From: an uncultured Gammaproteobacteria bacterium
Lineage (GTDB): Bacteria; Pseudomonadota; Gammaproteobacteria; Steroidobacterales; JBCBZW01
Length of the DNA stretch: 64,000 nt
NCBI GenBank assembly: GCA_965369325.1
Contig: CBDUQI010000007.1
Coordinates: 92-64,091 of the forward strand
Reading direction: 5' to 3'
The notes under the pieces are model-generated. The model searched no databases, was not told the DNA's origin, and was given only the letters and a program-made list of their open reading frames with translations. Within the stretch, counting starts at the first letter, position 1, and each line of letters starts with the position of its first letter. Positions 2,346 through 25,379 of the stretch are shown piece after piece. Made by a program: the position numbers and the translations under genes.

Positions 2346-4583
2346 TTACATCTCGTTGAGTTCCCGAAACAGGCTGCGCATGCCCCGCCTGAACTTCCCG
2401 GTATCGGTGGAGGAAATCACGTTCGCGTCCACTAGCTCCCTCAAAGCCATTCTGACACAGCGCATAAACGCCGCCTCTTGTAGGGTCAGCCGACGCAATA
2501 CTTCCCCATCAGACTCCGCCGAGCCCGCCTGCAGCGCACGCACTGGATCGCAGGGTATTTCCGGGAAAATGACGGTCTCTCCAGCCCTGGCGTTTAGATA
2601 TCGATTCTGCACTCCACCGGGCCATAACACATCCACCACGCCCTTCCGTCCGGTCCCCAGGCCAAAATGAGCGGTAAGGCTATTCTGGGACTGATAGCTG
2701 GAACCGCCGACTATCGGCTGCATCGCCGTACTGCCCTCTTTGGGTGTGAAACGTACAACGGCCCCGATGCCATCACGATTCACGCTGCCATCAGTGACGA
2801 GCCCGATCGTTCCGACCAAATTCACGGCAATCCAATTATTACCGTTGTTGGCATCACTGATTTCAACGGACAGTTTTCCATTAGGATAGTCAAGAAAAGC
2901 CGGTAGGAAAGTAAACTGCTCCGGCACACCCGTCTCAGCGAACACTGGGCTAATCAAAGCCTCAGGGCCAAATGCGCCGCCAAACAGCTCACCAAATGGA
3001 TTCGGTAACACCTCCGGTTCATCCGGTACGGGATTGGGAATACTGAAAGCCGCGGCGGAGACCACGTCTACAAACCCGTCATTGTTCAAATCTCCTGCGG
3101 CCAAGCCTTCTTCAACCCCCAACAAGTGACGCCTGCCGTCGTCCTCGGCCAACGCCATCGTATCGCGTGAAAAATTCCCGTCGCCATCATTTGTAAGTAC
3201 CGCTAATGGGTTGTCAGCGAATATAAACGGCCCTTGTATTCCGCCTACATACAGGATGTCAGTGTCCGCATCGTTGTCATAGTCAAACGCCACTGTGCCC
3301 CAGCCAAACGCGCTGGTGATCATGCCGGGAACCGAAGGGGCCGGATCACCGAGATCGACCGAATCAATGAAGGCCCCCTCGTCCGTTCCGAAAAACCAGC
3401 GGCTGGCGTTGGTACCCAATGCGTCCTCAGGAGGCAATCCGAGCACGGCGTCAATGATCACACTAGAATTCGCGTCTCCGAAATTGGACGCAAAATAGTC
3501 CATATGACCATCACGGTTGAAGTCCGCGAAACTCAATCCCATCCATCCCCCAGTGGTAGACTGAATCGCGTCCACGAACTCCCCGCTACCGTCATTCTTG
3601 AACAGGTGAATCAAGCCTCGGTCCAAATTGAGCTCACCAGGTGGAAAACTTAGCGGCGCTATCGCGCCCTGATCATCGGCTTCAAAAATGTCGATATTGC
3701 CATCCAGATCAAAGTCTACCATGGCAACCGCCCAGGTGATGCCAGCAGGAGCATCAGGAATGGGCACTACTTCGCCATCCACCGATATCCTCATTCCCTC
3801 CAACACATGAATACCAGATGTCTGACTTGCGTCAGCGAACTGATTCCCGCCGATGTTGATAAACAACTGATTGTGTTGATTCGAATCTATGGGTTCTAAC
3901 GCGATGGGCAACCGATTGTTCATATCGAAGGCGTTACCCACGTAGATATCCAACAATCCATCGTTGTTGACGTCGCCCATGCTTGCCGATATCGACCAGT
4001 AAGCACCGCCGCCGCTGTTGCTGCTCGCAGTGATATCCGTAAACGTACCGTCTCCGAGATTCTCAAATAGGCGATTCTCCTCGCCCGCTCCCAGGACATA
4101 CAAATCGTGATCACCGTCATTGTCGATGTCGCCGAAGACACAGCCTGAGCCATCATGATCCACCGCAGCGACATCTGCAGCCAACGCCTTGTCGAGAAAC
4201 CCGATGACGCCGTCCTCGACTAATTGATTGTGATACAGGCTATTCGCCGTACCTGGGCCGTTGGTCACGTAGATATCCAGATCACCGTCGTTGTCATAGT
4301 CCAGCAAACAAATCCCAGGAGTACCACGTGCCTTCATGGGCATATTGAAAATATCAACCGGAGAAAAAGGCCCGTCAGGGTTACTGCTCAAGAATTCGAA
4401 ATTGCTGTTCCTCGCCGAGGGAGTTCTTTCGTACGCATCTACCGCCGCATCCGAAAATGTACTAAACGTCATGCCACCGGAGACTGCATCGGTATCAGTA
4501 GAAGACGCGTAGACATTTTGCAGCGTGCAACTGCCGACAAGCATTGAGACCACGACATTCCTCACCATGGACACTCTCTTCAT
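2346..4583 (-). CDS. secreted FG-GAP/VCBS-repeat beta-propeller protein with ASPIC/UnbV C-terminal domain (CRTAC1 family)
   Basis: 745-aa ORF with an N-terminal signal-like segment. Repeated DxDxDGxxD FG-GAP motifs (DYDNDGDLDIYV, GDIDNDGDHDLYV, GDVNNDGLLDIYV, DFDLDGNIDIF, DLNNDGFVDVV). UnbV-like tail NRDGIGAVVRF...GGSSYQSQNS. GGAG RBS upstream. Confidence 0.8.
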   Translation of the reverse strand: MKRVSMVRNVVVSMLVGSCTLQNVYASSTDTDAVSGGMTFSTFSDAAVDAYERTPSARNSNFEFLSSNPDGPFSPVDIFNMPMKARGTPGICLLDYDNDGDLDIYVTNGPGTANSLYHNQLVEDGVIGFLDKALAADVAAVDHDGSGCVFGDIDNDGDHDLYVLGAGEENRLFENLGDGTFTDITASSNSGGGAYWSISASMGDVNNDGLLDIYVGNAFDMNNRLPIALEPIDSNQHNQLFINIGGNQFADASQTSGIHVLEGMRISVDGEVVPIPDAPAGITWAVAMVDFDLDGNIDIFEADDQGAIAPLSFPPGELNLDRGLIHLFKNDGSGEFVDAIQSTTGGWMGLSFADFNRDGHMDYFASNFGDANSSVIIDAVLGLPPEDALGTNASRWFFGTDEGAFIDSVDLGDPAPSVPGMITSAFGWGTVAFDYDNDADTDILYVGGIQGPFIFADNPLAVLTNDGDGNFSRDTMALAEDDGRRHLLGVEEGLAAGDLNNDGFVDVVSAAAFSIPNPVPDEPEVLPNPFGELFGGAFGPEALISPVFAETGVPEQFTFLPAFLDYPNGKLSVEISDANNGNNWIAVNLVGTIGLVTDGSVNRDGIGAVVRFTPKEGSTAMQPIVGGSSYQSQNSLTAHFGLGTGRKGVVDVLWPGGVQNRYLNARAGETVIFPEIPCDPVRALQAGSAESDGEVLRRLTLQEAAFMRCVRMALRELVDANVISSTDTGKFRRGMRSLFRELNEM

Positions 4584-4642: not shown

Positions 4643-7600
4643 CTACGCGGTTTCTGCTGACTTGCTGCTACTGGTAGAGAACCTCTGATGAATGCACTGA
4701 CTAAACAGCTCCACGTCTTGTTGAGACATAAAGTGATTGCCCTCGTGCAGTATCGTTTTGGTATCAAAAGACGTCGTCAGATCGTGCCAACTTGAGACCT
4801 GCAACGGATACGTCCACAAATCCCTTTTCCCAGCAACGGCCGTGATCGGACAATCCAGCTTAGGCGCGTCGTCACATGTGTAGTTGGCCATCAACATCAG
4901 GTCCGAACGAACCAGATTTCTTAGCGGCGCTGAACGCCTCTTTCCGTCAAACGAATCAAGCAGTGGACAATCGATGACGTTCAGCAATTCGGCCAGTTTT
5001 CCATCGTCCAGCAGATGTCCGTTCGGCGCCGTGTAAAGCGTCGGACTGACGACCCCCGATACCACCATAAACTCCGGCTCCGAGTATCCGTCGAGTTTAA
5101 GCCGCTTTGCCAATTCGTACTGGATAATCCCGCCAAAACAATGTCCAAAAAAGCCGAACGGCCGGCCAATATAATCCAGTACGGACGGCAGCAGCTCCTC
5201 TACGATGTCCTGTATGTTCTCGGTACACGCCTCATCCTTTCTCAGCCCGTGCCCTGGGTATTGAACGACAGCTACTTGCCAGTGTTCGCCCATCGACAGA
5301 GGAAGGTAGGCCGGGCTCGGAGATGTTTCCCAAGCACCTGGAAAACAAAGCAATGTGTTCTTTCGAGGACTGTAACGGCTCGGCCAATGCAAGAGATTTG
5401 GATTAGTGTGCCCTGCCAGATGCCGCCGACTGTCTCGCCCGTATACAACCTGCGACGTTGCGACAGAGATGGCGCCGACCTCCGCAACTTCGAAGCGGTG
5501 CCGATGACTGGAGCTGGACGTAGACAAACCCAACGTGTGATTGATCTCGTCCAAAATGATGTCCCGGTCTGATTCGATAAAGTAATGATCGCCATCCAAC
5601 AAATTCAACCGAAACTCGCTACTCGTATAGCCACCCCATGCCCGCATTGCGCACGGCGCCGCGAACAGATCATGATTAGCCGCAAAGCCGGTGATGGGTG
5701 CTGAGAACACAACGTCGTCGGTTTTAGCTTCAGCATAGTGCGCTACAGCTTCGAAGTCCGCCCGTAACATTGGGGTCATCAGATCGAGCACTTCTTTATC
5801 TTTATGCAGTGCCCCGGCGCTAGTGAAACTGATCAGATCCAGCACTTCTAAGAACTTCTGCTCTCCCAGCGCGTACACCATCGGCGAATTGTACAAATGA
5901 GGCGCCATGCAACCGGATACAAAGACGTGATGAGGCTCAATTCCTGCTGTGAGCTTAAGTTGGGCGGCGACCTCGTACATCACGATTGCGCCCATGCAAT
6001 GGCCAAAGAAAATGACAGGCTTGTCCAGCATCGGCCCCATTGCACCCGCCACCGCTTTTTTCATCTGCTCGATACGAGTCAATGGCGACTCACCCAATCG
6101 CGCCGCGCGGCCCGGGAGGTGAACCGCGCATACTTCTATCTCGGGCGAAAGCGCCTCATGCCAATCTTGAAATACCACCGGGCCTGCGCCGGCGTAGGGG
6201 AAGCAGAACATTCGATACTTAGCGTCCGGTCTCGGATGCGGCGTCACTATCCAGGCACCCTCACGTTGCGGCTCAGTCTGTCCCGCAACGCCTTTACCGG
6301 CGGCGCCTTGTATGTCGAACGTATCGAGCATGACGTCAACAATTTTTGCCACGCTCGTGTCACGCAACAGTGTGGCAACCGGCAGGCTTACACCAAAACG
6401 ATCCAGTTTCGCTTTTAACTCCACAGCCATCAGCGAGTCCATTCCAAGGCTGGTAAGTGCTTGCTCAGGCAGCAAACGATTGGCGTCAAATCCGAATAAC
6501 TTTGATAGTATTTCCTGCACTTCCGCGATAGCTACCTCTTTAACTTCATCTTCCGGCAACGAGTCGAATTTCTCGCGCAGCCCCTGCTCCTCGGCACTTT
6601 GGCTGGACGCCTGCCCCTGCGCCTGAGCATCAGCCAGGTCGCCAAAGCGTGTTGTGGCCCCCGCAGGGTTAAACCGCAGCCACTTCTCCCAATCAATTGG
6701 CGAGATAGTGATCTGCGTGTCGCCGTCACACAATGCCATACCCATCAACTCGAGACCGTCGCGGGAATGCAGTGCGCGCAAGCCGTTTTCCTCAAGACTA
6801 CGTCGATAGAAGTCTTCATCGGCGGCCATGCCCACATCAGCAATGACGCCCCAATTTACCGACAACGCTGGCTGGCCGTTCGCCTTGCGAAAATGCGCCA
6901 AGCTATCCATGAACCCGTTAGCTGCGGCGTAGTTACCGGACCCTTGATTTCCTAACGTCGTTGCCACTGAGGAGAACAACACGAAACACTCAAGATCCCA
7001 ACGTTGCGACAATTCGTGGAGATTCAACGATCCACGGATTTTTGTGGCCGCCACTCGTTCAAATTTCTGCATGTCTTGCTTCAACAGTAAGGCATCATCC
7101 AAAACGCCCGCCGCATGAAAAACGCCTCGGACCGGGACATCCGGATTTACCGAATTGATGATTGTTTCGACATCGGCGCGGTCCGAGATATCGGCCTTAA
7201 TGACGGTGACTTGCGCTCCCATCGTCTCCAGATCCTTCACCAGCCGTTGCGCTGCAGGGCTGGTCGCGCCGCTACGCCCCAGCAAAGACAAATGTCGACA
7301 GCCTCGCTCAACCAACCAGCGCGCCAGCGAGGATCCAAACCCACCAAGGCCGCCGGTGATCAGATAGCTTGCGTCGCTTTGGAATACCGGAGCCGTTGGC
7401 GCATTCACTTCAAGCTGATCTGCCTCTGCGAAAGAAACAACAAGTTTTCCCATATGCCCGCCGGACAACATCGACTTAAACGCCGCCTGCGCCTGATTCG
7501 CCGGATAGCAAGTCGACTTAAGTGGCTGCAGGTCACCACTGCTGTACAAATCATGAATGCGCGCTAGCATCGCGCCGCAATACCCAGGCCGTTGTTGGAG

Positions 7601-10600
7601 CATGCGGTCAAGGTCCACCGCAAAAAACGAGAGATTGTAGTGGAACGGCTTCATCCCAATTGGTTTATTACGATTGATATCCATTTTGCCAATCTCAACA
7701 AAACGTCCATAGTCACGCAGTAAAGACAAACTCAGATCGATTAACGGGCCCGCCAATGAGTTCAAAACAACATCAACACCTTCCTCGTCAGTATCCGCCA
7801 GTATGTCCTGTGCGAAACTTGGCGAGCGCGAATCATAAATATGCTCTACCCCGAGACTTTGAAGAAACGATCGTTTCTCATCGTTGCTCGCGGTCGCGTA
7901 AACTTCGGCACCGACCCATTGTGCGAGTTGGATCGCTGCTTGGCCGACGCCCCCTGCCGCTGCGTGTATTAGCACGCGGTCACCCTTAGATAAACGAGCC
8001 AGGTCAACCAGACCGTAATAGGCGGTCATGAACACCATTGGCATAGCCGCGGCCTCCTCGTCTCCCAATGAGGAGATGGGCACCACCAGTGAATCAACGG
8101 TGACTGTGTGCGATCGTAGGCTGTGTGGCGCGAGCGCCATCACCCTATTGCCCACAGAAAGATCACGCACTTGGGATCCGTGGGCGAGCACAACGCCTGC
8201 GCATTCCATCCCCAAGGTATCTCCACTCCAAAGATTCTCCTCCATCAGATCGATGGGAAACAACCCGCTAGCCTTCAACACGTCCTTGAAGTTGAGGGAG
8301 GCGTGACTTACTTTGATCAACACCTCATTAGGCCCTGGCAATGGCAGCGGCATTGGCACGTAACACAGACTGTCGAGATGGCCGGATTCCCGAAATTCCA
8401 TAGAGAAGGCTCGCCCGTCAGCCAATGTTGCAACTGCAGAGCTTTTCCCTTCCCGACGTATCAGACGCCGAACATAGCGTCGTCCATCGCGAAGAGTTAC
8501 TTCCTCCTCATCTGCGCCGGGCGCTATCTCACGGTAGATATCATCCAAGTCGTCTGCGGAGATACGCTCCCCCAGATCGATGATCTTGCTCGCGAGCTCT
8601 GGATGCTCGTTACCCAGCACTCGAACAAGGCCGAACAGTGGGGATTGAGCAAGGTGAATATTCGAAGTGTTGTCACACTCAGATGCCTCACAGGTAAGAA
8701 TACGCAACGCGGCCGGCATCTTAGAAAGGCTTGAAAGACTCTGCAATAGATACACAACACTGCCAAACCCGTCACTCTGACGGGACATAACCTGTTCGAC
8801 ATCAAGCGCGTCACCGCGTGGTGCGTCGAATGCAAAACCGTGCACAACATTGTGAATTTCCACCCCCGCTGCGGCGAGATCCTGCACCAATTGCTGGTAA
8901 TGCTCCCGGCAAGACGGATCAACTTGGTAGAGGCTTTCACCCAGTTTTTTATACGTATTAGCCTTTTTTACCTCTACCAGTTTTTGCTCACGGTCCCGAA
9001 AAGCGGTGCTAATCCACTCGCTCTGTTCATTGGTGAGAACCAACCAGACCTGATCTTTGTCGACTTCGCGCGTGGGAATATCTTCCAACTGCCAATCAAA
9101 ACTGTACAGCCACTGCGCAGCATGTTTCTGGAGGTTTTCACTTGAGTAGTCAATCGCCTCGCAACGCAACTGTCGAATATCTAGAATTGGAAGGCCGTCG
9201 TCGCCATACAACATGACGTTCGCGGTGAACGAATGCTCACCCTTTTTGGTGATACGGGCGTGACTCCAACAGTCCATGGACTGCGGTTTGTTCACCAGCC
9301 GGCAGCTTTTGATACTTACCGGCAGATATGCCTGGTCACGCATATCCGCATCTTCCGCGGTCAGCGAAAGAGCGCCGAAGATGCAATGCAAGCTGGCATC
9401 CAGCCAAGCCGGATGGAAGTTGTAGCCGTCGCCATCGCCGTCGGCGCCGTCAGTTTCGAACGGCGTGATGCGCGCCAGGCATTCGTCCACGCCTTGGTGC
9501 ATTTTGATGATGCGTTGAAAGTCTTTCCCGTAGTGAAATCCGATATGCCCGAACAGTTCATACAGGTAGTCGACCGGCAGTTCCCTAGTACAGCGCGCAA
9601 GAATCGCCTCGATATCCGCGCAGGCGCACAGGCGTGTGGCTTGCTTTCGTACATGGCCTTGACAATGTCGGTCCCAACCGCTCTGGCTCTCTGATAACGA
9701 GCTAATCGCGAAGGAATTGTCGGCATCTATGGCGAACTGCAGACTCACTGCATCGGTGGGTGGCACGAACAACGCTTTGCTCAAACGTAGGTTTTCAACA
9801 ACGCAATGCTCTTTGTCCCAATCGACATCGACCGCTGCGCAAGCCATTTCGATATAGCCGGCGCCGGGAAACACCACCTCGCCCTGAATTTTGTGATCCC
9901 TCAAGTATGGGTATCGGTCCAGATCAATGGTCTGATTCCATACGGTGTTAGCCAATTGCAGCCTTGCACCCAACAACGGATGTGTCTTCCCTTTGGCGGC
10001 CACCAGCGTTTGCATGGCATAACCCTTACGAACACTGGCCGCATCCTCAGACTCTGCCCAGCACGATATCGGTTGCCATGGGTAGTTGGGCAGATTGAGT
10101 AACTTGCCTTCGGGATAGATACTTTTCCAATCAACATCTGTCCCGTGCTGATAAAGATTGGACAGATTACGCAGCAGATTCTTTCTTTCCTGCTGCTCGC
10201 GCCGCAAACTATGCGCTTGCGGCGCCGTCTTGCCCACCGCCTCCAGGCACTCTCGAATAGCACCCGACAGAACAGGATGCGGACCCACCTCCAGGATGGG
10301 TGGCAACTCAGTGGCTTCCTCGCGCAGGCACCAATTCATCAACGCCTTGGCGAAATACACGGGCTGTCTGACATTTCTCCACCAATACTCGGCATGCAAC
10401 TGTGGTCCATCAAGCTCACCGCCCGTCACTGTAGAGATGTACGGAATCTGTGAATTCTTAGGCGTCAAGGTGGCCAGGGACGCGAGTAAATCCTCTTGTA
10501 GAGGATCCATCTTCGAGCTGTGATAGGGCACCTCTACGATGAGAGGACGATTGAATATCTCTTTGTTCTCCAGCTTTCTGGCAATCACGCCTAGCACCTC

Positions 10601-12721
10601 AGCATCGCCGGAGAGTGTGACGCTTGTCGGGCTGTTTACGGCCGCGATCGATACTTGCTGCATCGCCTCCGGGAACATGGCCGTGACGTCCTTCTCGCTG
10701 GCGCCAACCGCAAGCATCGTGCCGGTTCCGCGCATACGATACTGCAGCTGGCTGCGGTAATACGACAGCCGCACCGCATCGTCCAATGACAGTATCCCGG
10801 CAACGTGTGCTGCCGATACCTCTCCCACCGAGTGGCCCATTACCGCCGAAGGTACTACTCCCCAACTCCTCCACAGATTCGCCAGCGCCACCTGGATACT
10901 AAAGATCGCCGGCTGCGCTACCGTGGTTTCCTGAACACGAGAATCGCCTTCTTCGCGCGCCAGCTCCTCAAGTAGTGACCAGCCCGTAAGGGGTAGAAAC
11001 GCCTGATCACAGCTCCGCATCGTTTGTTCAAAAACTGGCTCCTGCTCCAGCAGCTCTCGACCCATTGCCCACCATTGCGGCCCCATACCCGTAAATACAA
11101 ACAGCGGACCAGGCCTAGTATTGTCACTGTTGGCAAGTCGCAGATCATCGGTATTTTTTGAAAGTTGGACCAGTTGTCTTTGCAAATCGGCCTGATCGTC
11201 GACAAGCAACGTAGCGCGGTAACCAAAATCCCCGCGCCGTGATGCCAGGGTATACGCCAAATCGGCAAGAACCGGTTGATTGTCCTCGACGTACCGACTG
11301 ATTTGCTCAGCCTGCGCACTCAATGCCTCCGGAGAATGAGCAGAGAGCTTTATTAAGTCCGTGTCCCGCCCAGTTGGCGGATATGAGCCGGCACCGTTGG
11401 TGAGTTGAGCCGTATCTTTTCGCTTCGGTGGCTCCTTGAGCAACACATGCACATTGGTACCGCCAAAACCAAATGAATTGACGCCGGCAATTTTCTCTGT
11501 TGGTTGCTGCCAGTCTTCCAATTCAATGGGCACCCGCAGCTTCAGCGCCGGCAAATCGATCTTCGGATTCACTTCCTCGAAATTGAGGTTGCGGGGAATT
11601 TTTCCGTTCTTTAGCGCCAACGCCGCTTTGATGAGGCCAGCCACGCCCGAGGCTGACTCCAAATGTCCCATGTTGGATTTGACCGACCCGATAACACATG
11701 TTTCACCATCAGCGCGTCCGTTCGACAGCACCCGCCCCAGAGCGTTCGCCTCGATGGGGTCACCGACCGGCGTACCGGTACCATGTGCTTCCACATACCC
11801 AATATCGCTGGGCTCAATCCCGGCGTTTTCAATCGCGGCGTGAAGCAATGTCTCTTGCGCCGAACCGTTTGGAACCGAGATACCCACCGTTCGCCCGTCC
11901 TGGTTACACGCCGAGCCGATGACGAGCGAGTAGATCGGGTTTTTGTCGTTCAGCGCCGCCGACAACGGCTTTAGCAACACCAGGCCGGCCCCCTCGCCGC
12001 GTACATAGCCGTTCGCTCGCGAATCAAATGAAAAACACCGTCCGTCAGGGCTGAGCATCGATGCCTTGCTCATCGCGATGGTCATCTCAGGGCGAATTAT
12101 CAGATTAACCCCACCCGCCAAGGCTGTATCACACTCGCCGTTGTGAATACTCTGACACGCCAGATGAATCGCCAACAAAGACGAGGAGCAAGCTGTGTCT
12201 ACGGCCATGCTCGGGCCGCTTAAGTTGAACGCGTAAGATACTCGGTTAGCGGCAATGCTCATCGCGGTACCCGTACCGGTATGAGCATTTAAATGATGCC
12301 GTTCGTTAAACTGAATATGCTGATAATCGTGAATGAATATCCCTACGAAAACACCGGTTCTAGCGCCACTTAACTTGCTCGGTAATTCTCCTGCATCCTC
12401 CATAGCTTCATACGCAGTTTCCAGTAATAGCCGTTGCTGCGGGTCAATATGCGCCGCCTCACGTGGAGAGATTTTGAAAAATTCGGGATCAAACCCATCA
12501 ATGCTGGGCAGGAATCCGCCCCTTGTTGCGTATGTTTTGCCTGGTGTCGTCGGGTCCTTCGAGTAGAGCGCTTCGAAGTCCCATCTATCTGTCGGCACTT
12601 CACCAACCGCGTCGGCGCCACTCCTCAACAAACGCCAGTAAGAGTCTACGTCATTGACGCCGCCTGGAAAACGACAGCCAACCCCCACAATAGCAATGGG
12701 CTCTTTCGTTTCGAATTTCAT
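4643..12721 (-). CDS. type I polyketide synthase, single fully reducing module: KS-AT-DH-(psiKR)-ER-KR-ACP-TE-TE
   Basis: 2692-aa ORF starting directly with KS (EPIAIVGVGCRFPGG). Domain motifs are listed in the sub-features below. AGGAAG RBS before ATG 12721. Confidence 0.95.
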   Translation of the reverse strand: MKFETKEPIAIVGVGCRFPGGVNDVDSYWRLLRSGADAVGEVPTDRWDFEALYSKDPTTPGKTYATRGGFLPSIDGFDPEFFKISPREAAHIDPQQRLLLETAYEAMEDAGELPSKLSGARTGVFVGIFIHDYQHIQFNERHHLNAHTGTGTAMSIAANRVSYAFNLSGPSMAVDTACSSSLLAIHLACQSIHNGECDTALAGGVNLIIRPEMTIAMSKASMLSPDGRCFSFDSRANGYVRGEGAGLVLLKPLSAALNDKNPIYSLVIGSACNQDGRTVGISVPNGSAQETLLHAAIENAGIEPSDIGYVEAHGTGTPVGDPIEANALGRVLSNGRADGETCVIGSVKSNMGHLESASGVAGLIKAALALKNGKIPRNLNFEEVNPKIDLPALKLRVPIELEDWQQPTEKIAGVNSFGFGGTNVHVLLKEPPKRKDTAQLTNGAGSYPPTGRDTDLIKLSAHSPEALSAQAEQISRYVEDNQPVLADLAYTLASRRGDFGYRATLLVDDQADLQRQLVQLSKNTDDLRLANSDNTRPGPLFVFTGMGPQWWAMGRELLEQEPVFEQTMRSCDQAFLPLTGWSLLEELAREEGDSRVQETTVAQPAIFSIQVALANLWRSWGVVPSAVMGHSVGEVSAAHVAGILSLDDAVRLSYYRSQLQYRMRGTGTMLAVGASEKDVTAMFPEAMQQVSIAAVNSPTSVTLSGDAEVLGVIARKLENKEIFNRPLIVEVPYHSSKMDPLQEDLLASLATLTPKNSQIPYISTVTGGELDGPQLHAEYWWRNVRQPVYFAKALMNWCLREEATELPPILEVGPHPVLSGAIRECLEAVGKTAPQAHSLRREQQERKNLLRNLSNLYQHGTDVDWKSIYPEGKLLNLPNYPWQPISCWAESEDAASVRKGYAMQTLVAAKGKTHPLLGARLQLANTVWNQTIDLDRYPYLRDHKIQGEVVFPGAGYIEMACAAVDVDWDKEHCVVENLRLSKALFVPPTDAVSLQFAIDADNSFAISSLSESQSGWDRHCQGHVRKQATRLCACADIEAILARCTRELPVDYLYELFGHIGFHYGKDFQRIIKMHQGVDECLARITPFETDGADGDGDGYNFHPAWLDASLHCIFGALSLTAEDADMRDQAYLPVSIKSCRLVNKPQSMDCWSHARITKKGEHSFTANVMLYGDDGLPILDIRQLRCEAIDYSSENLQKHAAQWLYSFDWQLEDIPTREVDKDQVWLVLTNEQSEWISTAFRDREQKLVEVKKANTYKKLGESLYQVDPSCREHYQQLVQDLAAAGVEIHNVVHGFAFDAPRGDALDVEQVMSRQSDGFGSVVYLLQSLSSLSKMPAALRILTCEASECDNTSNIHLAQSPLFGLVRVLGNEHPELASKIIDLGERISADDLDDIYREIAPGADEEEVTLRDGRRYVRRLIRREGKSSAVATLADGRAFSMEFRESGHLDSLCYVPMPLPLPGPNEVLIKVSHASLNFKDVLKASGLFPIDLMEENLWSGDTLGMECAGVVLAHGSQVRDLSVGNRVMALAPHSLRSHTVTVDSLVVPISSLGDEEAAAMPMVFMTAYYGLVDLARLSKGDRVLIHAAAGGVGQAAIQLAQWVGAEVYATASNDEKRSFLQSLGVEHIYDSRSPSFAQDILADTDEEGVDVVLNSLAGPLIDLSLSLLRDYGRFVEIGKMDINRNKPIGMKPFHYNLSFFAVDLDRMLQQRPGYCGAMLARIHDLYSSGDLQPLKSTCYPANQAQAAFKSMLSGGHMGKLVVSFAEADQLEVNAPTAPVFQSDASYLITGGLGGFGSSLARWLVERGCRHLSLLGRSGATSPAAQRLVKDLETMGAQVTVIKADISDRADVETIINSVNPDVPVRGVFHAAGVLDDALLLKQDMQKFERVAATKIRGSLNLHELSQRWDLECFVLFSSVATTLGNQGSGNYAAANGFMDSLAHFRKANGQPALSVNWGVIADVGMAADEDFYRRSLEENGLRALHSRDGLELMGMALCDGDTQITISPIDWEKWLRFNPAGATTRFGDLADAQAQGQASSQSAEEQGLREKFDSLPEDEVKEVAIAEVQEILSKLFGFDANRLLPEQALTSLGMDSLMAVELKAKLDRFGVSLPVATLLRDTSVAKIVDVMLDTFDIQGAAGKGVAGQTEPQREGAWIVTPHPRPDAKYRMFCFPYAGAGPVVFQDWHEALSPEIEVCAVHLPGRAARLGESPLTRIEQMKKAVAGAMGPMLDKPVIFFGHCMGAIVMYEVAAQLKLTAGIEPHHVFVSGCMAPHLYNSPMVYALGEQKFLEVLDLISFTSAGALHKDKEVLDLMTPMLRADFEAVAHYAEAKTDDVVFSAPITGFAANHDLFAAPCAMRAWGGYTSSEFRLNLLDGDHYFIESDRDIILDEINHTLGLSTSSSSHRHRFEVAEVGAISVATSQVVYGRDSRRHLAGHTNPNLLHWPSRYSPRKNTLLCFPGAWETSPSPAYLPLSMGEHWQVAVVQYPGHGLRKDEACTENIQDIVEELLPSVLDYIGRPFGFFGHCFGGIIQYELAKRLKLDGYSEPEFMVVSGVVSPTLYTAPNGHLLDDGKLAELLNVIDCPLLDSFDGKRRSAPLRNLVRSDLMLMANYTCDDAPKLDCPITAVAGKRDLWTYPLQVSSWHDLTTSFDTKTILHEGNHFMSQQDVELFSQCIHQRFSTSSSKSAETA
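4680..5365 (-). other. thioesterase domain 2 (PF00975-like) with Cys at the nucleophile position
   Basis: LLCFPGAWETS...FFGHCFGGII...EGNHFM. The Cys codon is the complement of 5138-5140 (residue about 2528). Confidence 0.75.
5535..6235 (-). other. thioesterase domain 1 (PF00975-like) with Cys at the nucleophile position
   Basis: FCFPYAGAG...FFGHCMGAIV...DGDHYF. The Cys codon is the complement of 5996-5998 (residue about 2242). The canonical motif is GHSMGG. Confidence 0.8.
6330..6545 (-). other. PKS acyl carrier protein domain (approximate bounds)
   Basis: LGMDSLMAVEL. The phosphopantetheine Ser codon is the complement of 6434-6436 (residue about 2096). Confidence 0.85.
6830..7385 (-). other. 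PKS ketoreductase domain (approximate bounds)
   Basis: Rossmann motif YLITGGLGGFGSSLARWL; SSVATTLGNQGSGNYAAANGF. Confidence 0.8.
7440..8400 (-). other. PKS enoylreductase domain (approximate bounds)
   Basis: MDR-type fold motifs, NADPH site LIHAAAGGVGQAAIQLAQ. Confidence 0.8.
9150..10000 (-). other. PKS dehydratase domain (approximate bounds)
   Basis: HPLLG and the HxxxGxxxxP motif (HKIQGEVVFPGAGY). Confidence 0.8.
10230..11110 (-). other. PKS acyltransferase domain (approximate bounds)
   Basis: FVFTGMGPQWWAMG, catalytic GHSVGE, later YHS motif (VPYHSSKM). Confidence 0.85.
11426..12706 (-). other. PKS ketosynthase domain (approximate bounds)
   Basis: DTACSSSL active-site Cys, EAHGTGTPVGDP, SNMGHLESASG, C-terminal GFGGTNVHVLL. 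Confidence 0.9.
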
Positions 12722-12801: not shown

Positions 12802-13605
12802 CTAAATATTTAGATGCCTAATTTCCTTGGCGGGCCAATCCTTGTGATATTTTGTGTACACTTTTTCATCTTCCAGGCGCTCGTAGTCTTTTACCGGTGC
12901 ACTCCAGTTGTTAATACTGTGGTGTCTGTTGTGGTAAATGATCCCGTTGAGCAATACCCTGCCCCACAAAAATCGCATCGCCGGCAGTACATGGCGCATA
13001 TCTTCTGCGCGCTCATAAACACCAAAGTCCGAATCGGCACGAAAACTTGATCGATGGGTGTAATAATTGAAAAAGAAAATTGCGATTGCCCGGATGAACC
13101 TTTGTGAAAGCACGTGTATCCAGTAGATCGCTCCAAAGAACACCAGGTGTACGGACAACATCGTGACGTTGATGAGAATGCTGGTGATCAGTTGCCGATT
13201 CATGCCTTTTTCCCGGTAATACTGATAACCGTTGTATTCGCTCTCAAACACGTTCCACACCAAGGCACTAAGACAATGACCGTTGTAGTAGGGGAGCCAC
13301 GGATCTGTGTACGTCCCGAAGTAGCGATGGTGTCTGTTGTGCGTATTGCGAAACGCGAGCAGCCCCCCCCAAATGGGATCCGCTACTAATGGATGCCGAG
13401 ACGTAAACCAAATGTCCTTCAAGGGGGCGCCGTGACTCAGATCGTGGATGTGCAAGTAGATCGCCGGGTAGAATATGATGTTGCACAAGACCAGCACATA
13501 CCACGGCAACCAGCCGCAGGCGAAAGCGATAAAGACAAAATATAAAAACGCGCTTCTCAGAAGTACGCCAAGATTCAGAAAAAATCCCTCTCTTGCCTTT
13601 ATCAC
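12802..13605 (-). CDS. membrane fatty-acid desaturase/hydroxylase family protein (three His boxes)
   Basis: ORF 12802..13623. His boxes HDLSHG, HNRHH and HNRHH; several TM segments. Start moved to the in-frame GTG at 13605, 7 nt after GGAGG. There is no ATG upstream of the first His box. Confidence 0.75.
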   Translation of the reverse strand: MIKAREGFFLNLGVLLRSAFLYFVFIAFACGWLPWYVLVLCNIIFYPAIYLHIHDLSHGAPLKDIWFTSRHPLVADPIWGGLLAFRNTHNRHHRYFGTYTDPWLPYYNGHCLSALVWNVFESEYNGYQYYREKGMNRQLITSILINVTMLSVHLVFFGAIYWIHVLSQRFIRAIAIFFFNYYTHRSSFRADSDFGVYERAEDMRHVLPAMRFLWGRVLLNGIIYHNRHHSINNWSAPVKDYERLEDEKVYTKYHKDWPAKEIRHLNI

Positions 13606-13663
13606 TCCGCCACCTCCGAGCAATTACTTAACAGCAATGGACGCTACGGAAGCTGCCTGGCGA

Positions 13664-15037
13664 TCACCTGACTTCCGCCAGGGGTAAACCACTAGGCACT
13701 CTCGTAGGTACGGTTTTGCGCAAATCCTGTGCTGATGGATCAGTAAGGGCGTTAAGGAAATCGAGTAAATCCACAACCTGGTCGTCAGTCAGGTTCATTG
13801 ATGGCAACTCGATTGCATCGGAGATTGCCTGAGTTATTTCATCATTGTTAAACGCGATCAAATCCATCGCGTCCAGGTCAGGGCGCGGCGGCATAACGAT
13901 CTGTGACGGATCGGCGTTCGCCAAGGCTTGCTGAGGATTCAGGTGATGCCGAACCACCGCCTCCAAGGAATTGTAGAACCCATCGTGCCCCCATGGACCG
14001 GTCAAAGCGGTATTGCGCAACGACGGTGTGCGGAACTTGTATCTGTCGGCACTATCGCCGGTAAAATCTTCACGCCCGAAGTCTTCAACACCTTCTATGC
14101 CGTTGCCAAAACCGGGCCCCACCTGCGGAATGCCAATTGCGTAAAATTTGTGATCCGTCTGGAACAACCCACTATGGCAGGCGCTGCACTGTGCTTCGCC
14201 ATAGAACAAGCGCATTCCCCGCTTGGCGCTGCGACTCATGGCGCTCCTGTCACCACGTAACAACCGATCGAACGGGCTGTTATCCGACCGAAAAGCCGTC
14301 CCCTGAAACGCTGCCAGCGCTTCGCCAAGCTGAACGATATCCATTTGATCGGGATCAAGGGCCACATCCGGAAAGGCTGCGGTGAACAACTCAACGTACT
14401 CAGGAATCGCCCGCATCCGCTCGACCAGCGATTCCCAAACAGGAACATGTGGACCGCCAGCGCCCGCATCGGCCATCTCATTGGTACCCGGCTGCCCCAA
14501 CATCTCCTGCGTATCGGTCTGAGCGAAAATTGATAGCGCGGCGAGTGGACTGCTGAATCCTAGTGGTAAGTTTTCACCTGCGGGTGTATCGAAGCCCTGG
14601 GGAATCTGCTCGTTGACCTGAATCCGGCCGTCCCAGAACAGCGTCATAAACTCCCGATGGCCAAGGTTAAACAGCGGGGTCATGTTGCGAGCACCTCTGG
14701 CCTGTGGGTCCAGACTGCTCGGCGGAAAGTTGCCGGCGTTGCGCTGTACGCTAAGGCCCTCGGCCCCGGTACCGATATTCGTAGACAAACCATCGACGGT
14801 GCCGATTAACGGCGAATGACAGGTGGCACAGGAAATATCTCGGTTGCCACTCAGTTCCTTATCAAAGAACAACATTTGCCCCAAGGCCACCATTTCCTGC
14901 GATGGTTGAATGAAATCGTCGTCCATAGCGGCCAGCGGCAGCAATTGACCCAATCCAGCATCGTCATCCGCCACAACCGGTGCGGACACAACAAATGCAC
15001 AACTGATGACGAGCGCCAACCAATATCGTTTACGCAT
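13664..15037 (-). CDS. periplasmic di-haem cytochrome c peroxidase / MauG family protein
   Basis: 457-aa ORF with a signal peptide (MRKRYWLALVISCAFVVSAPVVA) and two CxxCH motifs (CATCH, CSACH). CCP-like core GPWGHDGF. Confidence 0.85.
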   Translation of the reverse strand: MRKRYWLALVISCAFVVSAPVVADDDAGLGQLLPLAAMDDDFIQPSQEMVALGQMLFFDKELSGNRDISCATCHSPLIGTVDGLSTNIGTGAEGLSVQRNAGNFPPSSLDPQARGARNMTPLFNLGHREFMTLFWDGRIQVNEQIPQGFDTPAGENLPLGFSSPLAALSIFAQTDTQEMLGQPGTNEMADAGAGGPHVPVWESLVERMRAIPEYVELFTAAFPDVALDPDQMDIVQLGEALAAFQGTAFRSDNSPFDRLLRGDRSAMSRSAKRGMRLFYGEAQCSACHSGLFQTDHKFYAIGIPQVGPGFGNGIEGVEDFGREDFTGDSADRYKFRTPSLRNTALTGPWGHDGFYNSLEAVVRHHLNPQQALANADPSQIVMPPRPDLDAMDLIAFNNDEITQAISDAIELPSMNLTDDQVVDLLDFLNALTDPSAQDLRKTVPTRVPSGLPLAEVR

Positions 15038-15247: not shown

Positions 15248-15871
15248 CTATTCGGTGAAGCAGAGCTGGCCCTCTTCGACAGCAAAATCGGCAACCCGAT
15301 TTTCCGGATCGTCACACCCGTTTACTGTGCCTTTCCAAACGATACTGCCAGACTCAATATTTCTGAATGCACCGGTTCCGATTGAAGTATCGAACAACAT
15401 TTGCTCCGTCGCCTCCGCGAACTGCGGATTGCCGTTATCGTCGGGGCAACTGCCGACGTCGATAGTAAACAAGCCCTCGTTGGAGGTTATGCTGCCGATT
15501 CGATCTCGGGTACCCAGAATATGTCGAGTAACAAAGCCCCCAGCCGCCTCGTCAAATGGATGCCCCAGCAACGCACCGGCCAGAATTGTCCGCTCGCCAT
15601 CTTTGGAAATCACCATCCTGTATCGACCTATCTCCCTATCGCTGTTCAGGCCGTCGATCTCAAAGACAGCGCGTGACACCTCATAACGCCCTCTCAACAC
15701 GTCGTAACAACCACTAAATACACTTTCCCCATGATCTAATGAGCTCGTCGAGTCTTTGAGGCTTGCCTGGTCCGGCACATTTGCGGCTTGGTCCGCCGAC
15801 GCCGCCCCTGCCAGAACAACGGACAAACACATGACGACAGACAACACCTTTTTATTCAAAACGTTAGACAC
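15248..15871 (-). CDS. exported protein of unknown function (first gene after the MerR-type promoter)
   Basis: ORF 15248..15892. Start moved to the in-frame GTG 15871, 8 nt after GGAGG, giving a signal peptide MSNVLNKKVLSVVMCLSVVLAGAASA. No family recognised. Confidence 0.6.
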   Translation of the reverse strand: MSNVLNKKVLSVVMCLSVVLAGAASADQAANVPDQASLKDSTSSLDHGESVFSGCYDVLRGRYEVSRAVFEIDGLNSDREIGRYRMVISKDGERTILAGALLGHPFDEAAGGFVTRHILGTRDRIGSITSNEGLFTIDVGSCPDDNGNPQFAEATEQMLFDTSIGTGAFRNIESGSIVWKGTVNGCDDPENRVADFAVEEGQLCFTE

Positions 15872-15961
15872 ATCGATTCCCTCCGCTAACACGTAATTTG
15901 GGGTACAACCACCATCATGATGGTGTACCTTTAGGTATGGTATGGAACGTAACTCAGTGCT

Positions 15962-15992
15962 ACTCTACAACTTAAAGCATACATTATGTCAA
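15962..15992 (-). promoter_or_regulatory. MerR-type promoter, 19-bp spacer, firing toward the PKS operon (site 1)
   Basis: Minus-strand read: TTGACA (complement of 15987-15992), 19-nt spacer TAATGTATGCTTTAAGTTG, TAGAGT (complement of 15962-15967). 27 of 32 nt are identical to site 2 at 21996-22026. Overlaps the 5' end of the divergent regulator gene, as in mer/sox loci. Confidence 0.6.
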
Positions 15993-16423
15993 GTAATATT
16001 ATGACCGACTTTACGATTGGCGAAGTCTCCAAGCGCTCGGGCCTAAGCGCCTCCGCAATCAGGTATTACGAAGCCGAAAGCATCGTGCCTAAGCCTGCCC
16101 GCAGAAACGGACGGCGGATTTACGATGAAGATTGGATGAACCGGTTGGGCATCGTATTAATCGCGCAAGAGGCAGGGTTCTCACTAAAGGAAATACGGAA
16201 TTTGACACGGCAACTTGGCAACTCAGGATCGTCTAGTTCCGAGCAGTTGCAGCACGCTGCCCGGTGTCAATTGCAAACATTGAACGATCGCAAAGTACGA
16301 ATACAACAAATGGAGCAATTGTTAGAAGGTTTGCTACATTGCCATTGTCACAGCCTCGACAAATGCGGTCAGATTGCATTAAGACTGGTGTCGCCTACAG
16401 GCGGAAAAACTACCGCCTCCTAG
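15986..16423 (+). CDS. MerR-family transcriptional regulator, SoxR-like
   Basis: N-terminal HTH FTIGEVSKRSGLSASAIRYYEAESIV...GRRIY, coiled-coil dimerisation helix, C-terminal HCHCHSLDKC cluster. The true start may be ATG 16001 (MTDFTIGE...), since 15986 overlaps the -35 of the divergent promoter. Confidence 0.85.
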   Translation: MSSNIMTDFTIGEVSKRSGLSASAIRYYEAESIVPKPARRNGRRIYDEDWMNRLGIVLIAQEAGFSLKEIRNLTRQLGNSGSSSSEQLQHAARCQLQTLNDRKVRIQQMEQLLEGLLHCHCHSLDKCGQIALRLVSPTGGKTTAS

Positions 16424-16492: not shown

Positions 16493-17689
16493 TCAGAAAT
16501 ATCGGGTTACCCGTATCTGCAGATAATCATCGCTTTCAAAAGAATACTGTGCCGAACTCTCCTCAGCCCCGCTAAACATACGCAGCCTCAACCCTGCGGT
16601 TATGCTCTCGCCAATACGACGCTCTGCTTCCAGATTGTAGAACCGCTCCGAATTGCGGCGGTCAAAAATCAGCCCCGCAAGAATATTGGTGTCTTGAGTA
16701 TCGTTTAAGGTCAATCTGCTGCCAACAAACACGTCATCATCGAAAGTCGTCGGTGGATCGTGCAAATTGCGGTCATCGTACAAGTACTCCATCAGAAAAC
16801 CGAAATCGGCATTCGAGTTCATCAGTTGATATCGCGTGTATTCAAATCCCGCGACCGCAGCAAAGAACGAGCTATTACCACCGGTTGCGACCAGGCTCTC
16901 CAACTTCCACAGCCATGCCGCCCCGGTGTACTGCAAATCCAGTCCCCATTGCCGCATCTGAGTATAGATAGGTATCAACTTGTCCCGGCCCCGGTTTAGC
17001 GTAAACCCCGGCTCCCTGCTGGTGCCGTCAAAGTAATACAGACCCACGTCAGCGCTGCCAAAATAATGGCTGTAACGTACGGCGAAATCCGTATGTTTTT
17101 GTTTGGCTGCCGATTCAAACCTGGCGCGGTCATCGTCCACTACCAACGAAGCTCTAAATCGCCCGTCTTGGCCACCAAACGTACGTTCGCGAAAATAGGG
17201 CAACACATAGAAGTCCAGCTTGCCCCAATCACGTTGCAAGCTGAGGTTAACCATTGGCTGACCCAACTTGTCCTCCTGATCCGGGTCCTCAACCAAATCG
17301 GTCTGATTGATGACGTCGATCAAATGACGGGATTCCGCCACGCCCCAGAACACCTTGTTGACACCCACAAGCAATTCCCAGCCGCCGCCCTCGTAGGCCC
17401 AGTAAGCTTCACGAAGATCAGGGTGTGTGCGCTGGGAATCTACCTCGTCAATCCGCAGAAATGGTTGGATACTGATCCGATGTTTTTCATCCTCGCTGCG
17501 CCAGCGCCATTCAAAATTAAGCAATGCGGAGAACTGTGCATCATCCACTTGTTTCCTAAAATTGGGGGACTCTAGAAAAAAGCGCGACTCTAATCCAGTG
17601 TCCAAAGACAATTTCCACTCGCCGGCCCACCCTGACTGAGGTAGGACTAGCAACCCGAGTGTGAACAAGTGGAAAAACGACAATCGCAT
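16493..17689 (-). CDS. putative outer-membrane beta-barrel protein (unknown family)
   Basis: 398 aa. Signal peptide MRLSFFHLFTLGLLVLPQSGWA, alternating-pattern sequence, C-terminal ...IRVTRYF (aromatic terminal residue typical of OM barrels). Its start overlaps the upstream stop (TGATG). Confidence 0.6.
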   Translation of the reverse strand: MRLSFFHLFTLGLLVLPQSGWAGEWKLSLDTGLESRFFLESPNFRKQVDDAQFSALLNFEWRWRSEDEKHRISIQPFLRIDEVDSQRTHPDLREAYWAYEGGGWELLVGVNKVFWGVAESRHLIDVINQTDLVEDPDQEDKLGQPMVNLSLQRDWGKLDFYVLPYFRERTFGGQDGRFRASLVVDDDRARFESAAKQKHTDFAVRYSHYFGSADVGLYYFDGTSREPGFTLNRGRDKLIPIYTQMRQWGLDLQYTGAAWLWKLESLVATGGNSSFFAAVAGFEYTRYQLMNSNADFGFLMEYLYDDRNLHDPPTTFDDDVFVGSRLTLNDTQDTNILAGLIFDRRNSERFYNLEAERRIGESITAGLRLRMFSGAEESSAQYSFESDDYLQIRVTRYF

Positions 17690-18501
17690 CAGCGCAGGCT
17701 ACGCAACCTTCCTTTTACGAAATCCTGATCCTTCAAACCAACGGAAAACTGGTAGTCACCGTAAAACAGGTCTGTGCTTTTATCAGTCTGATGATTCACC
17801 ATTCTCAGCGTTTGCGCCCGCCAGATCCCATCGTAGTTTTGATATTCCTCTAACGTGAGGGTTTTCAATAAATCACCGCGTCGATCGTAGAATTCAATTT
17901 TCCGAATTTGGAAAACCTGCTGATCAATCCAGACCAACTGTCGGGCGTAGCCGGAGCTCTCATACCTGGGTAGCCGCTCAAGCACATCGTAGATCACGCC
18001 ATCGTCGCCGTTCTCTGCACGCAGGTATTTGTAGGTGTACTTATTCAACTCCTGGGATGTAAAATCTTCAAACGCAAACTCCGACCCCACAAATGGACCG
18101 GATTTGTTGGCCGACGCGATACGTTTAACTCTTTTCAGGGCCGGCAGAAATAGCCACTGATCATCCGGCTCCAGGATTTTCGCATGGGACAGCAATGCGG
18201 TGCCTTCGATATCCCTCGGACTCTTAAACACCACCAGACTTTTGTCACCAAAAGCCTCATCTGCGACTTCCAATGTCGTAACACGCAGCTGGCGGGTGCT
18301 CTCCTGTCCGGCCGCGTTGCGCAGAATCATCTTCAGGGTGACTTTGCTATCGCCAAAGCCGCGATCAGATCGGTCCGCTCGGGCCGCAACGTCCAAGCCC
18401 TTCTGATCGGCATCTTGCGCTTGTGCGCTCACCGTCAAACCTAGCGCGCACAACAATACCGCACTACATACAACGTTGTTGGTAAGTGAATTAATAGACA
18501 A
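17689..18501 (-). CDS. LolA-like periplasmic protein (outer membrane lipoprotein-sorting protein family)
   Basis: 270 aa with a signal peptide. Family-like motif QWLFLPALKRVKRIASANKSGPFVGSEFAFEDF. TTG start after GGAG. Confidence 0.75.
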   Translation of the reverse strand: MSINSLTNNVVCSAVLLCALGLTVSAQAQDADQKGLDVAARADRSDRGFGDSKVTLKMILRNAAGQESTRQLRVTTLEVADEAFGDKSLVVFKSPRDIEGTALLSHAKILEPDDQWLFLPALKRVKRIASANKSGPFVGSEFAFEDFTSQELNKYTYKYLRAENGDDGVIYDVLERLPRYESSGYARQLVWIDQQVFQIRKIEFYDRRGDLLKTLTLEEYQNYDGIWRAQTLRMVNHQTDKSTDLFYGDYQFSVGLKDQDFVKGRLRSLR

Positions 18502-18563
18502 AGAATTCTCCGAAGTATTTCACGCCGAATTTTGAGCAACCTCAGCTAAGCCAATTTGTATAA

Positions 18564-25377: not shown

Positions 25378-25379
25378 CA

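Follow-up and report, generated by a model that had tools for sequence, protein, structure and literature searches.

The window analysed here is a stretch of 64,000 nucleotides from contig CBDUQI010000007.1 of an uncultured gammaproteobacterium. It encodes a type I fully reducing polyketide synthase (PKS) that ends in two consecutive thioesterase (TE) domains, TE1 and TE2, both of which have Cys rather than Ser at the position of the nucleophile. Alignments with solved enzymes and a structure prediction agree that each domain holds a complete Cys-Asp-His triad on a PF00975-type nucleophile elbow, and that both are alpha/beta-hydrolase domains of the type II thioesterase kind, like RedJ, RifR and BorB. 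On comparative sequence evidence, a Cys-bearing TE1 combined with a diversifying TE2 paralogue is the hallmark of a conserved, uncharacterised family of reducing PKSs. The finding is solid at the level of sequence, and the family is new to the literature searched. The reading preferred here, to which we give a probability of roughly 0.45, is that TE1 would be the release catalyst, working non-hydrolytically through a thioester acyl-enzyme, and that TE2 would be a competent accessory paralogue.

The two thioesterase domains

The PKS is encoded by an open reading frame (ORF) at 4643..12721 (-), which specifies 2692 amino acids with the domain order KS-AT-DH-ER-KR-ACP-TE1-TE2, as established from the ORF list, the translation, Pfam and NCBIfam. 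TE1, assigned to PF00975, occupies 5516..6262 (-) (aa 2154-2402) and TE2 occupies 4667..5383 (-) (aa 2447-2685), the limits of both being envelopes of the hidden Markov model (HMM). The linker between them, at 5384..5515 (-) (aa 2403-2446), is poorly conserved and predicted to be disordered, with a pLDDT of 26-37 at model residues 256-305. The TE1 nucleophile is Cys2242 (TGC, 5996..5998 (-)), which lies in the motif GHCMGA within the peptide VIFFGHCMGAIVMYE; that of TE2 is Cys2528 (TGT, 5138..5140 (-)), in the motif GHCFGG within FGFFGHCFGGIIQYE. The triads are completed in TE1 by Asp2351 (5669..5671 (-)) and His2379 (5585..5587 (-)), and in TE2 by Asp2634 (4820..4822 (-)) and His2663 (4733..4735 (-)), all four placed by alignment. 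The two His residues belong to the motifs DGDHYF, which starts at aa 2376, and EGNHFM, which starts at aa 2660. An earlier reading of the DNA sequence, made without database searches (the sequence-only reading), had quoted the two peptides, the two Cys codons and both His motifs, and all of them are exact in the translation.

Each domain was run separately by phmmer against all Protein Data Bank (PDB) chains. The best matches of TE1 are RedJ (1.2e-36) and RifR (4.8e-33), followed by BorB, human TE2, YbtT and TesA; those of TE2 are BorB (1.7e-20), RedJ (3.7e-20) and RifR. The similarity to ObiF1 is marginal in this search, with E values of 6.9e-4 for TE1 and 1.7e-3 for TE2. In the alignments the Cys of both domains stands opposite the Ser of the RedJ motif GHSMGA (3qmv/3qmw). 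The TE2 Cys is also opposite the GHSMGA Ser of BorB (6vap), and the TE1 Cys is opposite the matching position of RifR. The triad Asp (ANHD in TE1, GKRD in TE2) and the triad His (GDHYF and GNHFM) align with the triad Asp and His of the partner enzymes. The two domains are 27% identical to each other (BLASTP, 3e-22).

The same arrangement is found in an AlphaFold2 (AF2) model of the last 545 residues of the PKS, computed from an alignment of 11 sequences. The model has a pLDDT of 76 and a pTM of 0.78; locally the pLDDT is about 90 across TE1 and 75-89 across TE2, with a disordered linker between them. The elbows are among the residues predicted with confidence (pLDDT about 94 in TE1 and 85-89 in TE2) and have the expected form, strand E89-94, C95 and helix H96-112 in TE1, and strand E375-380, C381 and helix H382-396 in TE2. 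Asp204, the model counterpart of Asp2351, follows strand E196-201, Asp487 follows strand E479-484, and His232 and His516 come after the last strand of their domains, so that the predicted triads are C95/D204/H232 and C381/D487/H516. A Foldseek search of the PDB with the model listed RedJ, RifR, BorB, YbtT, ClbQ and TesA first, with TM-scores, normalised to the target, of 0.8-0.88; ObiF1 and SulM appeared lower down. Alignment and model thus bear out the earlier proposal of two PF00975-type domains in which Cys occupies the nucleophile elbow and faces Asp and His. That proposal was right about the PF00975 type and had missed that the domains resemble type II TEs rather than canonical type I release TEs.

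The reading frame of the synthase is open across 8 kb without interruption, and Pfam places KS at aa 7-382, AT at 541-856, DH at 914-1190, ER at 1463-1762, KR at 1784-1961 and PP-binding at 2067-2129. The Pfam family PF00975 itself matches two stretches with a score of 198.5 bits, the cut-off being 26.4, and Abhydrolase_6 additionally matches TE2 (aa 2458-2665). The acyl carrier protein (ACP) domain immediately before the tandem, at 6314..6544 (-) (aa 2060-2136; PF00550, aa 2067-2129), carries the phosphopantetheine Ser2096 (codon 6434-6436) in a conserved LGMDSL motif. In an alignment with six full-length orthologues the catalytic motifs of KS, AT, DH and ACP are kept. The AT has the motif VPYHS at aa 731-735 (window positions about 10517-10531 (-)), of which PYH is common to the window and all six aligned orthologues, the next residue being Ser except in L005, where it is Gly. 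ATs specific for malonyl or methylmalonyl units carry HAFHS or YASHS at this place; with VPYHS in their stead, the usual rule cannot predict the extender-unit specificity of the PKS.

Conservation of both cysteines

A word-indexed search with the TE-TE region returned 20 matches in all. The nearest ones other than the window itself, at 38-39% identity, stem from JGI metagenomes and from a metagenome-assembled genome (MAG) of the Prolixibacteraceae; both GHC motifs are near-invariant in the alignment of these metagenome relatives of about 38% identity. When one genome of each GTDB species was scanned, ten tandem loci (L001-L010) came up, ten of ten in MAGs. Their assignments are Flavobacteriales, with 58% identity, and, with 35-38%, Polyangiaceae, Archangium, other Myxococcota, Vicinamibacterales, Ramlibacter, Gammaproteobacteria and an unclassified Proteobacteria MAG. 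In six of the loci (L002, L003, L005, L007, L009 and L010) the PKS is a single open frame of 2650-2763 amino acids with the same domain order and intact KS, AT, DH and ACP motifs; in the remaining four of the ten it is cut by contig ends or, in L006, divided between two frames. The TE1 nucleophile is Cys in all ten loci. The TE2 nucleophile is Cys in eight of the nine loci read, L007 having Gly and L008 being the locus not read.

A closer relative is a PKS on a metagenome contig, L011, which is 67% identical over the full length and has both Cys. By domain, the identity between the window and L011 is 84% in KS, 80% in TE1, 60% in TE2 and 24% in the linker, which makes TE1 the second most conserved domain of the PKS after KS. 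The contrast of 80% and 60% with the 24% of the linker argues that both TEs are under purifying selection, TE1 more strongly. Against distant orthologues TE1 is 45-50% identical and TE2 30-33%. The N-terminal motif of TE2, which had been taken for a degenerate one, is instead a family variant, CFPxA, conserved among the relatives.

A single substitution would turn either Cys codon into a Ser codon, which would be in keeping with sequencing errors at the Cys codons or with a TE region that is the remnant of a degenerating pseudogene. Such an artefact or decay has next to no probability: the ORF is uninterrupted over 8 kb, the triads are intact, the TE domains are under purifying selection, and the two Cys turn up again in assemblies made independently from many phyla. 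Sequencing error and pseudogene were both rejected on this comparative conservation of the two Cys. Because both residues are kept in L011, in the scan loci (eight of the nine informative ones) and in the metagenome relatives of about 38% identity, base-call error is excluded as well.

A family of tandem thioesterases

When 1.84 billion cluster representatives were searched exhaustively by phmmer, 15,344 of them matched at E <= 0.001, and the best 150 of these 15,344 were examined. Their TE domains, together with those of the window and of six genome loci, were aligned to one HMM, and the three triad columns were read. In this single register 62 tandem-TE proteins could be compared, of which 54 are representatives of database clusters at 50% or 90% identity, several of them fragments, and the rest are the window and seven genome loci. 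The TE1 nucleophile is Cys in 55 of the 58 informative tandem cases, within the motif GHC[MLVI]G and down to identities of about 33%; the three exceptions are one Ser/Ser protein, one protein with Gly and one aberrant three-domain protein. TE2 is far more variable. Across the 62 tandems its nucleophile is Cys in 28, Asp in 18 (GHDLG), Gly in 9, Asn in 3, Ser in 2 and Ala in 1, and in 21 clusters it is Asp or Asn while TE1 has Cys. The Gly type (L007, P0034, P0037, P0038, P0045, P0050, P0051, P0054 and P0070) mostly reads GHGFG and often comes with a shortened domain. The triad Asp and His of TE2 are almost always kept across the tandems. The window PKS has the features of the family: a C-terminal tandem of type II-like TEs, the first with GHC[MLVI]G and the second with the triad Asp and His still in place.

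All tandem members are from metagenomes or MAGs, and none of the database records checked carries an informative name. Some members have no ER and read KS-AT-DH-KR-ACP-TE-TE, and at L013 (10001-17095) a Cys/Asp tandem ends a three-gene modular PKS. Matches with a single TE number 109, of which 87 show Ser and 19 Cys; PKSs of the cultured Pseudomonas cichorii/capsici, Sorangium sp. So ce131 and Breoghania end in several of these single Cys-TEs. The view of the sequence-only reading that natural Cys-TEs are rare therefore holds among characterised enzymes but fails in this TE lineage, where Cys is the rule; 19 of the single-TE relatives just counted have it too.

A neighbour-joining tree of 211 TE domains, without support values and with short internal branches, places 54 domains in a TE1 clade, whose sister is a TE2-Cys clade of 28-30 domains. 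A separate, neighbouring clade of 94 domains, 86 of them with Ser, holds the type II-like TEs that are mostly free-standing, and single Cys-TEs of PKSs form another separate clade, of 11 domains. The sister relationship of the TE1 and TE2-Cys clades points to an ancestral TE that had Cys before it was duplicated, and indicates that TE1 and the Cys-type TE2 are paralogues derived from it.

The most divergent group of the tree consists of the Asp/Asn TE2s (22 domains). In this sister group (P0028-P0052, others and L013), with Asp in GHDLG or with Asn, the triad His and Asp are retained. An Asp nucleophile is unusual in the PF00975 fold and may go with a different chemistry. Two further proteins of about 505-516 amino acids, P0012 and P0016, are fusions of a 4'-phosphopantetheinyl transferase (PF01648/PF22624) with a TE related to TE1.

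Comparison with known systems

Free-standing type II TEs, namely RedJ (3qmv), RifR (3fla), BorB (6vap), YbtT, ClbQ, TesA and human TE2, are the best matches of the window domains both in sequence (E 1e-36 to 1e-17) and in fold. They share with them the GH-x-M/F-G elbow with His before the nucleophile, the Asp after a later strand and the His near the C-terminus. These enzymes, however, are discrete, use Ser and hydrolyse mis-acylated carriers, whereas the window has two Cys copies fused in cis after the ACP; neither the Ser-containing GHSMG motif nor the form of a discrete, trans-acting protein is found in the window domains. The fusion of a type II-like TE to the end of a type I PKS has precedents in CylH TE, AjuTE and JerTE (PMC5707447), all of which differ from the window in being single and in using Ser (numbered S1201 in the CylH PKS-module construct and S95 once the TE is excised); neither a tandem nor Cys is reported for them. 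The C-terminal type II-like TE of CylH is an editing domain, which shows that a domain of this kind need not serve in release (PMC5707447).

The Cys nucleophile in a RifR-like triad is shared with ObiF and SulM, which form the beta-lactone of obafluorin and the beta-lactam of sulfazecin. For these two Cys-TEs the RifR-like triad, with Asp after a later strand, has been described; both group with type II TEs, and in both an acyl-thioester enzyme leads to non-hydrolytic ring closure (PMC6668435, PMC11298585). The sequence-only reading had singled out these enzymes as comparators, and the triad geometry common to them and to the window domains, in the cited papers as in the Foldseek matches, confirms their relevance. 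Unlike the window PKS, a reducing PKS with an ACP, they belong to nonribosomal peptide synthetases (NRPSs), act on peptidyl substrates next to a peptidyl carrier protein, with a beta-hydroxy or beta-amino aminoacyl unit, and are single TEs. The Gln-Cys-Asn motif of SulM, moreover, contrasts with His-Cys-Met in TE1 and His-Cys-Phe in TE2.

Two TE domains in series at the C-terminus are otherwise a feature of lipopeptide NRPSs, from which the window differs in its PKS context, its type II TE lineage and its Cys nucleophiles. The NRPSs of arthrofactin, lysobactin and teixobactin have tandem TEs of type I lineage with Ser, the first of which does the main release while the second is auxiliary.

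The likeness to mycobacterial Mas and Pks2 lies in the order KS-AT-DH-ER-KR-ACP, in the intact active sites, in an MMPL/HAE3 transporter nearby and in the logic of a PKS lipid coupled to RND export. The NCBIfam model of mycobacterial Pks2 aligns to aa 8-2107 of the window PKS with 1310.9 bits, well short of the equivalog cut-off of 2400; the score therefore argues for a Mas/Pks2-like fully reducing architecture and not for an orthologue. From this domain order and the lack of a loading module we infer that the window PKS works iteratively. Mas and Pks2 are not known to carry TEs and are off-loaded by PapA acyltransferases, and the TE of Pks13 uses Ser in acyl transfer to trehalose.

The literature searched for tandem PKS TEs, for the motifs GxCxG and GHCxG and for Cys-TEs yielded only ObiF, SulM, CylH and PikTE-S148C; the family is not described there.

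Chain release

If the preferred reading is correct, the finished acyl chain would pass from the phosphopantetheine thiol of the ACP to Cys2242 of TE1 in an energy-neutral transthioesterification. Held there as a TE1 thioester, it would be resolved by an internal hydroxyl, that is by lactonisation, or by an acceptor molecule or thiol, and not by bulk water. TE2, a duplicated Cys-TE that would be catalytically competent in the window clade, would be accessory rather than an obligatory relay station; it could clear mis-acylated ACP in cis, in the way of type II TEs and of the editing domain of CylH, or provide a second site for holding or processing the chain. The product would be a long-chain lipid, oxidised or desaturated by a His-box di-iron membrane enzyme and, in this genome, probably exported by the adjacent HAE3/MMPL and LolA-like system. 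That the product is a lipid, that the His-box enzyme modifies it and that the HAE3 system exports it is deduced solely from the gene neighbourhood described below.

Part of the evidence for this reading comes from what is kept and what is lost in the family. The TE1 Cys is strictly kept although Ser, one mutation away, suffices for hydrolysis in the sister TEs, which argues that the acyl-enzyme must stay a thioester. A need to resolve the chain by something other than bulk water would account for the invariant Cys of TE1 and for its contrast with the Ser of the hydrolytic sister TEs; on the same ground non-standard, non-hydrolytic release, already suspected by the sequence-only reading, remains a reasonable proposal. 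The domain TE2 is kept by relatives that have lost or changed its nucleophile, and this suggests an accessory function rather than an obligatory relay. In ObiF the Cys is required for ring formation, and its loading has been described as an energy-neutral transthioesterification (PMC6668435); in SulM the Cys is described as the catalytic nucleophile of the beta-lactam-forming TE (PMC11298585). PikTE S148C is a better cyclisation catalyst, with a lower barrier to lactonisation.

Several points weigh against this interpretation. The TE2 Cys and an intact triad are kept in 28 clusters, and TE2 is under clear purifying selection, so that it could be essential. The predicted pTM of 0.78, reached despite the disordered linker, hints at a fixed packing of TE1 on TE2, which would fit a composite two-site catalyst. 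A fully reduced chain offers no obvious internal nucleophile, and no gene that would supply an acceptor was identified. Cys hydrolases exist, so that Cys by itself is no proof of non-hydrolytic release. Finally, no biochemically characterised member of the tandem family, and no product, was found in the literature searched.

Three other explanations, and one that combines parts of them, have to be set against the reading of TE1 as a non-hydrolytic release catalyst. An obligatory relay between two thiols would take the chain from ACP-S to TE1-Cys and on to TE2-Cys, or would put one chain on each Cys; TE2 would then do the final transfer, or two bound chains would be coupled as in polyhydroxyalkanoate synthase, which is a Cys-dependent alpha/beta-hydrolase. 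The closest clade (28 clusters, L011 and L001) conserves the two triads in complete form, TE2 is under purifying selection (60% against 24% in the linker), the predicted pTM of 0.78 suggests a defined packing of the two domains, and thiol-to-thiol transfer is energy-neutral (PMC6668435), all of which agrees with a relay. The census weakens it: TE2 has Gly in 9 tandems and Asp or Asn in 21 more in which TE1 has Cys, so that the relatives would work without a TE2 thiol. We consider an obligatory relay doubtful, and the thioester hand-over from TE1 to TE2 that the sequence-only reading had put forward is weakened as an obligatory step. Plain hydrolysis, in which one or both TEs would cleave the acyl-ACP to a free fatty acid that the His-box enzyme then modifies, Cys being a lineage-specific stand-in that does the work of Ser, appears unlikely to about the same degree. 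The nearest solved relatives are all hydrolytic type II TEs, the motif departs from GHSMGA at the nucleophile only, and free fatty acids are known substrates of some membrane di-iron enzymes. Yet the TE1 Cys is retained in 55 of 58 cases over a deep clade, although a single base change (TGY to TCY or AGY) would give Ser, which argues for selection of a Cys-specific chemistry; the Cys of ObiF, besides, is needed for ring formation and not for hydrolysis, and the Cys-TE SulM is also ring-forming.

Formation of a beta-lactone or of another strained or small lactone, in which the last cycle would leave a 3-hydroxyacyl thioester, TE1-Cys would close it as in ObiF and TE2 would process or proofread, is the least probable of the three. 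The fold and the triad layout of TE1 and TE2, with Cys and with Asp after a later strand, are common to ObiF and SulM, and the TE2s of the sister clade have an Asp nucleophile (GHDLG), a type used by alpha/beta-hydrolases that open strained rings or act on alkyl halides; an Asp-type TE2 would fit a ring-opening or decarboxylating role. But the sequence similarity to ObiF is marginal (E = 7e-4 and 1.7e-3), the Gln-Cys-Asn motif of SulM is absent, and DH and ER appear active, which makes a fully reduced chain the default product. A broader proposal joins elements of these schemes. In it TE1(Cys)-TE2 would be a composite two-site termination module with a release chemistry not yet described for PKSs, working either by a thiol-to-thiol hand-over that couples two chains or transfers the chain to an acceptor, or by beta-lactone formation on TE1 followed by processing on TE2. 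We regard the composite module, together with these options, as an improbable though not far-fetched outcome. The interpretation to which the conservation of the TE1 Cys and the variability of TE2 lend most weight is that TE1 would be the release catalyst, with TE2 as its accessory paralogue.

Gene neighbourhood

Directly upstream of the PKS lies its conserved partner, the gene of a His-box membrane protein (12802..13623 (-), start probably at 13605), in whose translation the boxes HX3H, HX2HH and HX2HH read HDLSH, HNRHH and HNRHH. The protein has no Pfam or NCBIfam match even at E = 1 and no sequence match in the PDB. Two close homologues carry PF00487 and one is named 'fatty acid desaturase', and the AF2 model of the protein (pLDDT 68) has a sole meaningful Foldseek match, AlkB (8f6t), with a probability of 0.97 and E = 0.17. 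It appears, from these homologues and the predicted fold, to be an undescribed divergent branch of the desaturase/AlkB di-iron superfamily. One or two His-box copies adjoin the PKS in L003, L005, L009, L010, L011, L014 and L015; since the flanks of L009 and L010 are otherwise unrelated, the minimal unit is taken to be the PKS and the His-box gene or genes. Members of the His-box family are about 260-300 amino acids long, and relatives lie at L009 11564-13396, L010 9418-11228 and L014 9231-10004.

Further upstream follow a MauG-like protein of the di-haem cytochrome c peroxidase family (13664..15037 (-); PF03150, with TIGR03981 and MbnH family matches) and a 214-aa protein of no assigned family (15248..15892 (-)), the first gene of the apparent operon, which has no Pfam or NCBIfam match even at E = 1. 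The L011 copies (7770-9945) are 72% identical for the MauG-like protein and 56% for the 214-aa protein, and a homologue of the latter is at the same position in L011 and L012. In L014 and L015 a MauG-like gene, with MbnP and an Sfp-type phosphopantetheinyl transferase, flanks a PKS of 45% identity (MauG region of L014, 18316-20192). The partner of the MauG/MbnH-like protein is thus the 214-aa protein in the window and L011 and a bona fide MbnP in L014 and L015; the 214-aa ORF was rejected as an MbnP homologue, as it has no BLAST match to the L014 MbnP. A regulator of the CueR/MerR family (15986..16423 (+); NCBIfam CueR 2e-18, SoxR, MerR) is divergent from the operon across a gap of 94 bp, and L011 has MerR and MerC genes at the equivalent place. 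These genes hint at metal- or redox-responsive control of the putative operon 214aa-MauG-HisBox-PKS.

Genes for a 398-aa protein, a LolA-like protein and an HAE3/MMPL RND transporter (16493..20930 (-); PF17131, PF03176, with HAE3 and HpnN-like matches) are a candidate lipid-export module. The 398-aa ORF has no Pfam or NCBIfam match even at E = 1 and has a weak Wzi-like match. All three genes adjoin the L011 PKS cluster, with 40-47% identity. The transporter is related to the hopanoid exporter HpnN.

Downstream of the PKS lies a gene for an FG-GAP/ASPIC-UnbV repeat protein (2346..4583 (-), by Pfam), a 66% identical copy of which is downstream of the PKS in L001, the sole locus to share it; the gene is absent from L011. 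The whole cluster is contained in a low-GC stretch of about 2.3-22 kb with 50-56% GC, the surroundings having 58-61%, and the orthologous cluster in L011 has 44% GC. Such base compositions are consistent with horizontal transfer; no tRNA or obvious mobility gene was seen at the borders of the low-GC island. Convergent with the FG-GAP gene is a haloalkane dehalogenase gene (1320-2264 (+); NF002938, 435 bits against a cut-off of 241). As an OleB-like partner of the PKS it was rejected, since it lies just beyond the low-GC island and neither L001 nor L011 has it.

Elsewhere in the window a cbb3-type cytochrome oxidase locus (22171-29829 (+)) encodes a CcoN-like COX1, CcoG (528 bits) and a CcoI-like copper P-type ATPase, and amine and aldehyde catabolic genes lie beyond it, a combination that points to a proteobacterial host. 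ORFs of 572, 745 and 1078 amino acids at 41835-46388 (-) and 56608-59844 (-) have no or marginal NCBIfam matches, the 1078-aa ORF containing a weak MtsC/MYXO-CTERM-like stretch. The GC content of the window drops to 47-52% past 60 kb.

Significance

The final product of a PKS is fixed at chain release. Characterised Cys-thioesterases from nature are few, and both of those considered here, ObiF and SulM, do unusual ring-forming chemistry; the reducing PKSs with a Cys-TE1 and a TE2 add to them a whole family from uncultured bacteria of several phyla. If plain hydrolysis were true, the finding would shrink to a sequence curiosity. The variety of TE2, with Cys, Asp, Asn or Gly, amounts to a natural experiment on the choice of nucleophile in alpha/beta-hydrolase release domains, and TE1-TE2 is a candidate for a new termination module in PKS engineering. 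The association of the PKS with a putative His-box di-iron enzyme, with or without an MMPL-type exporter, offers a handle on a lipid pathway. Should the composite two-site module prove true, it would, together with the His-box oxygenase and the HAE3 exporter, point to a new class of envelope lipids in uncultured bacteria.

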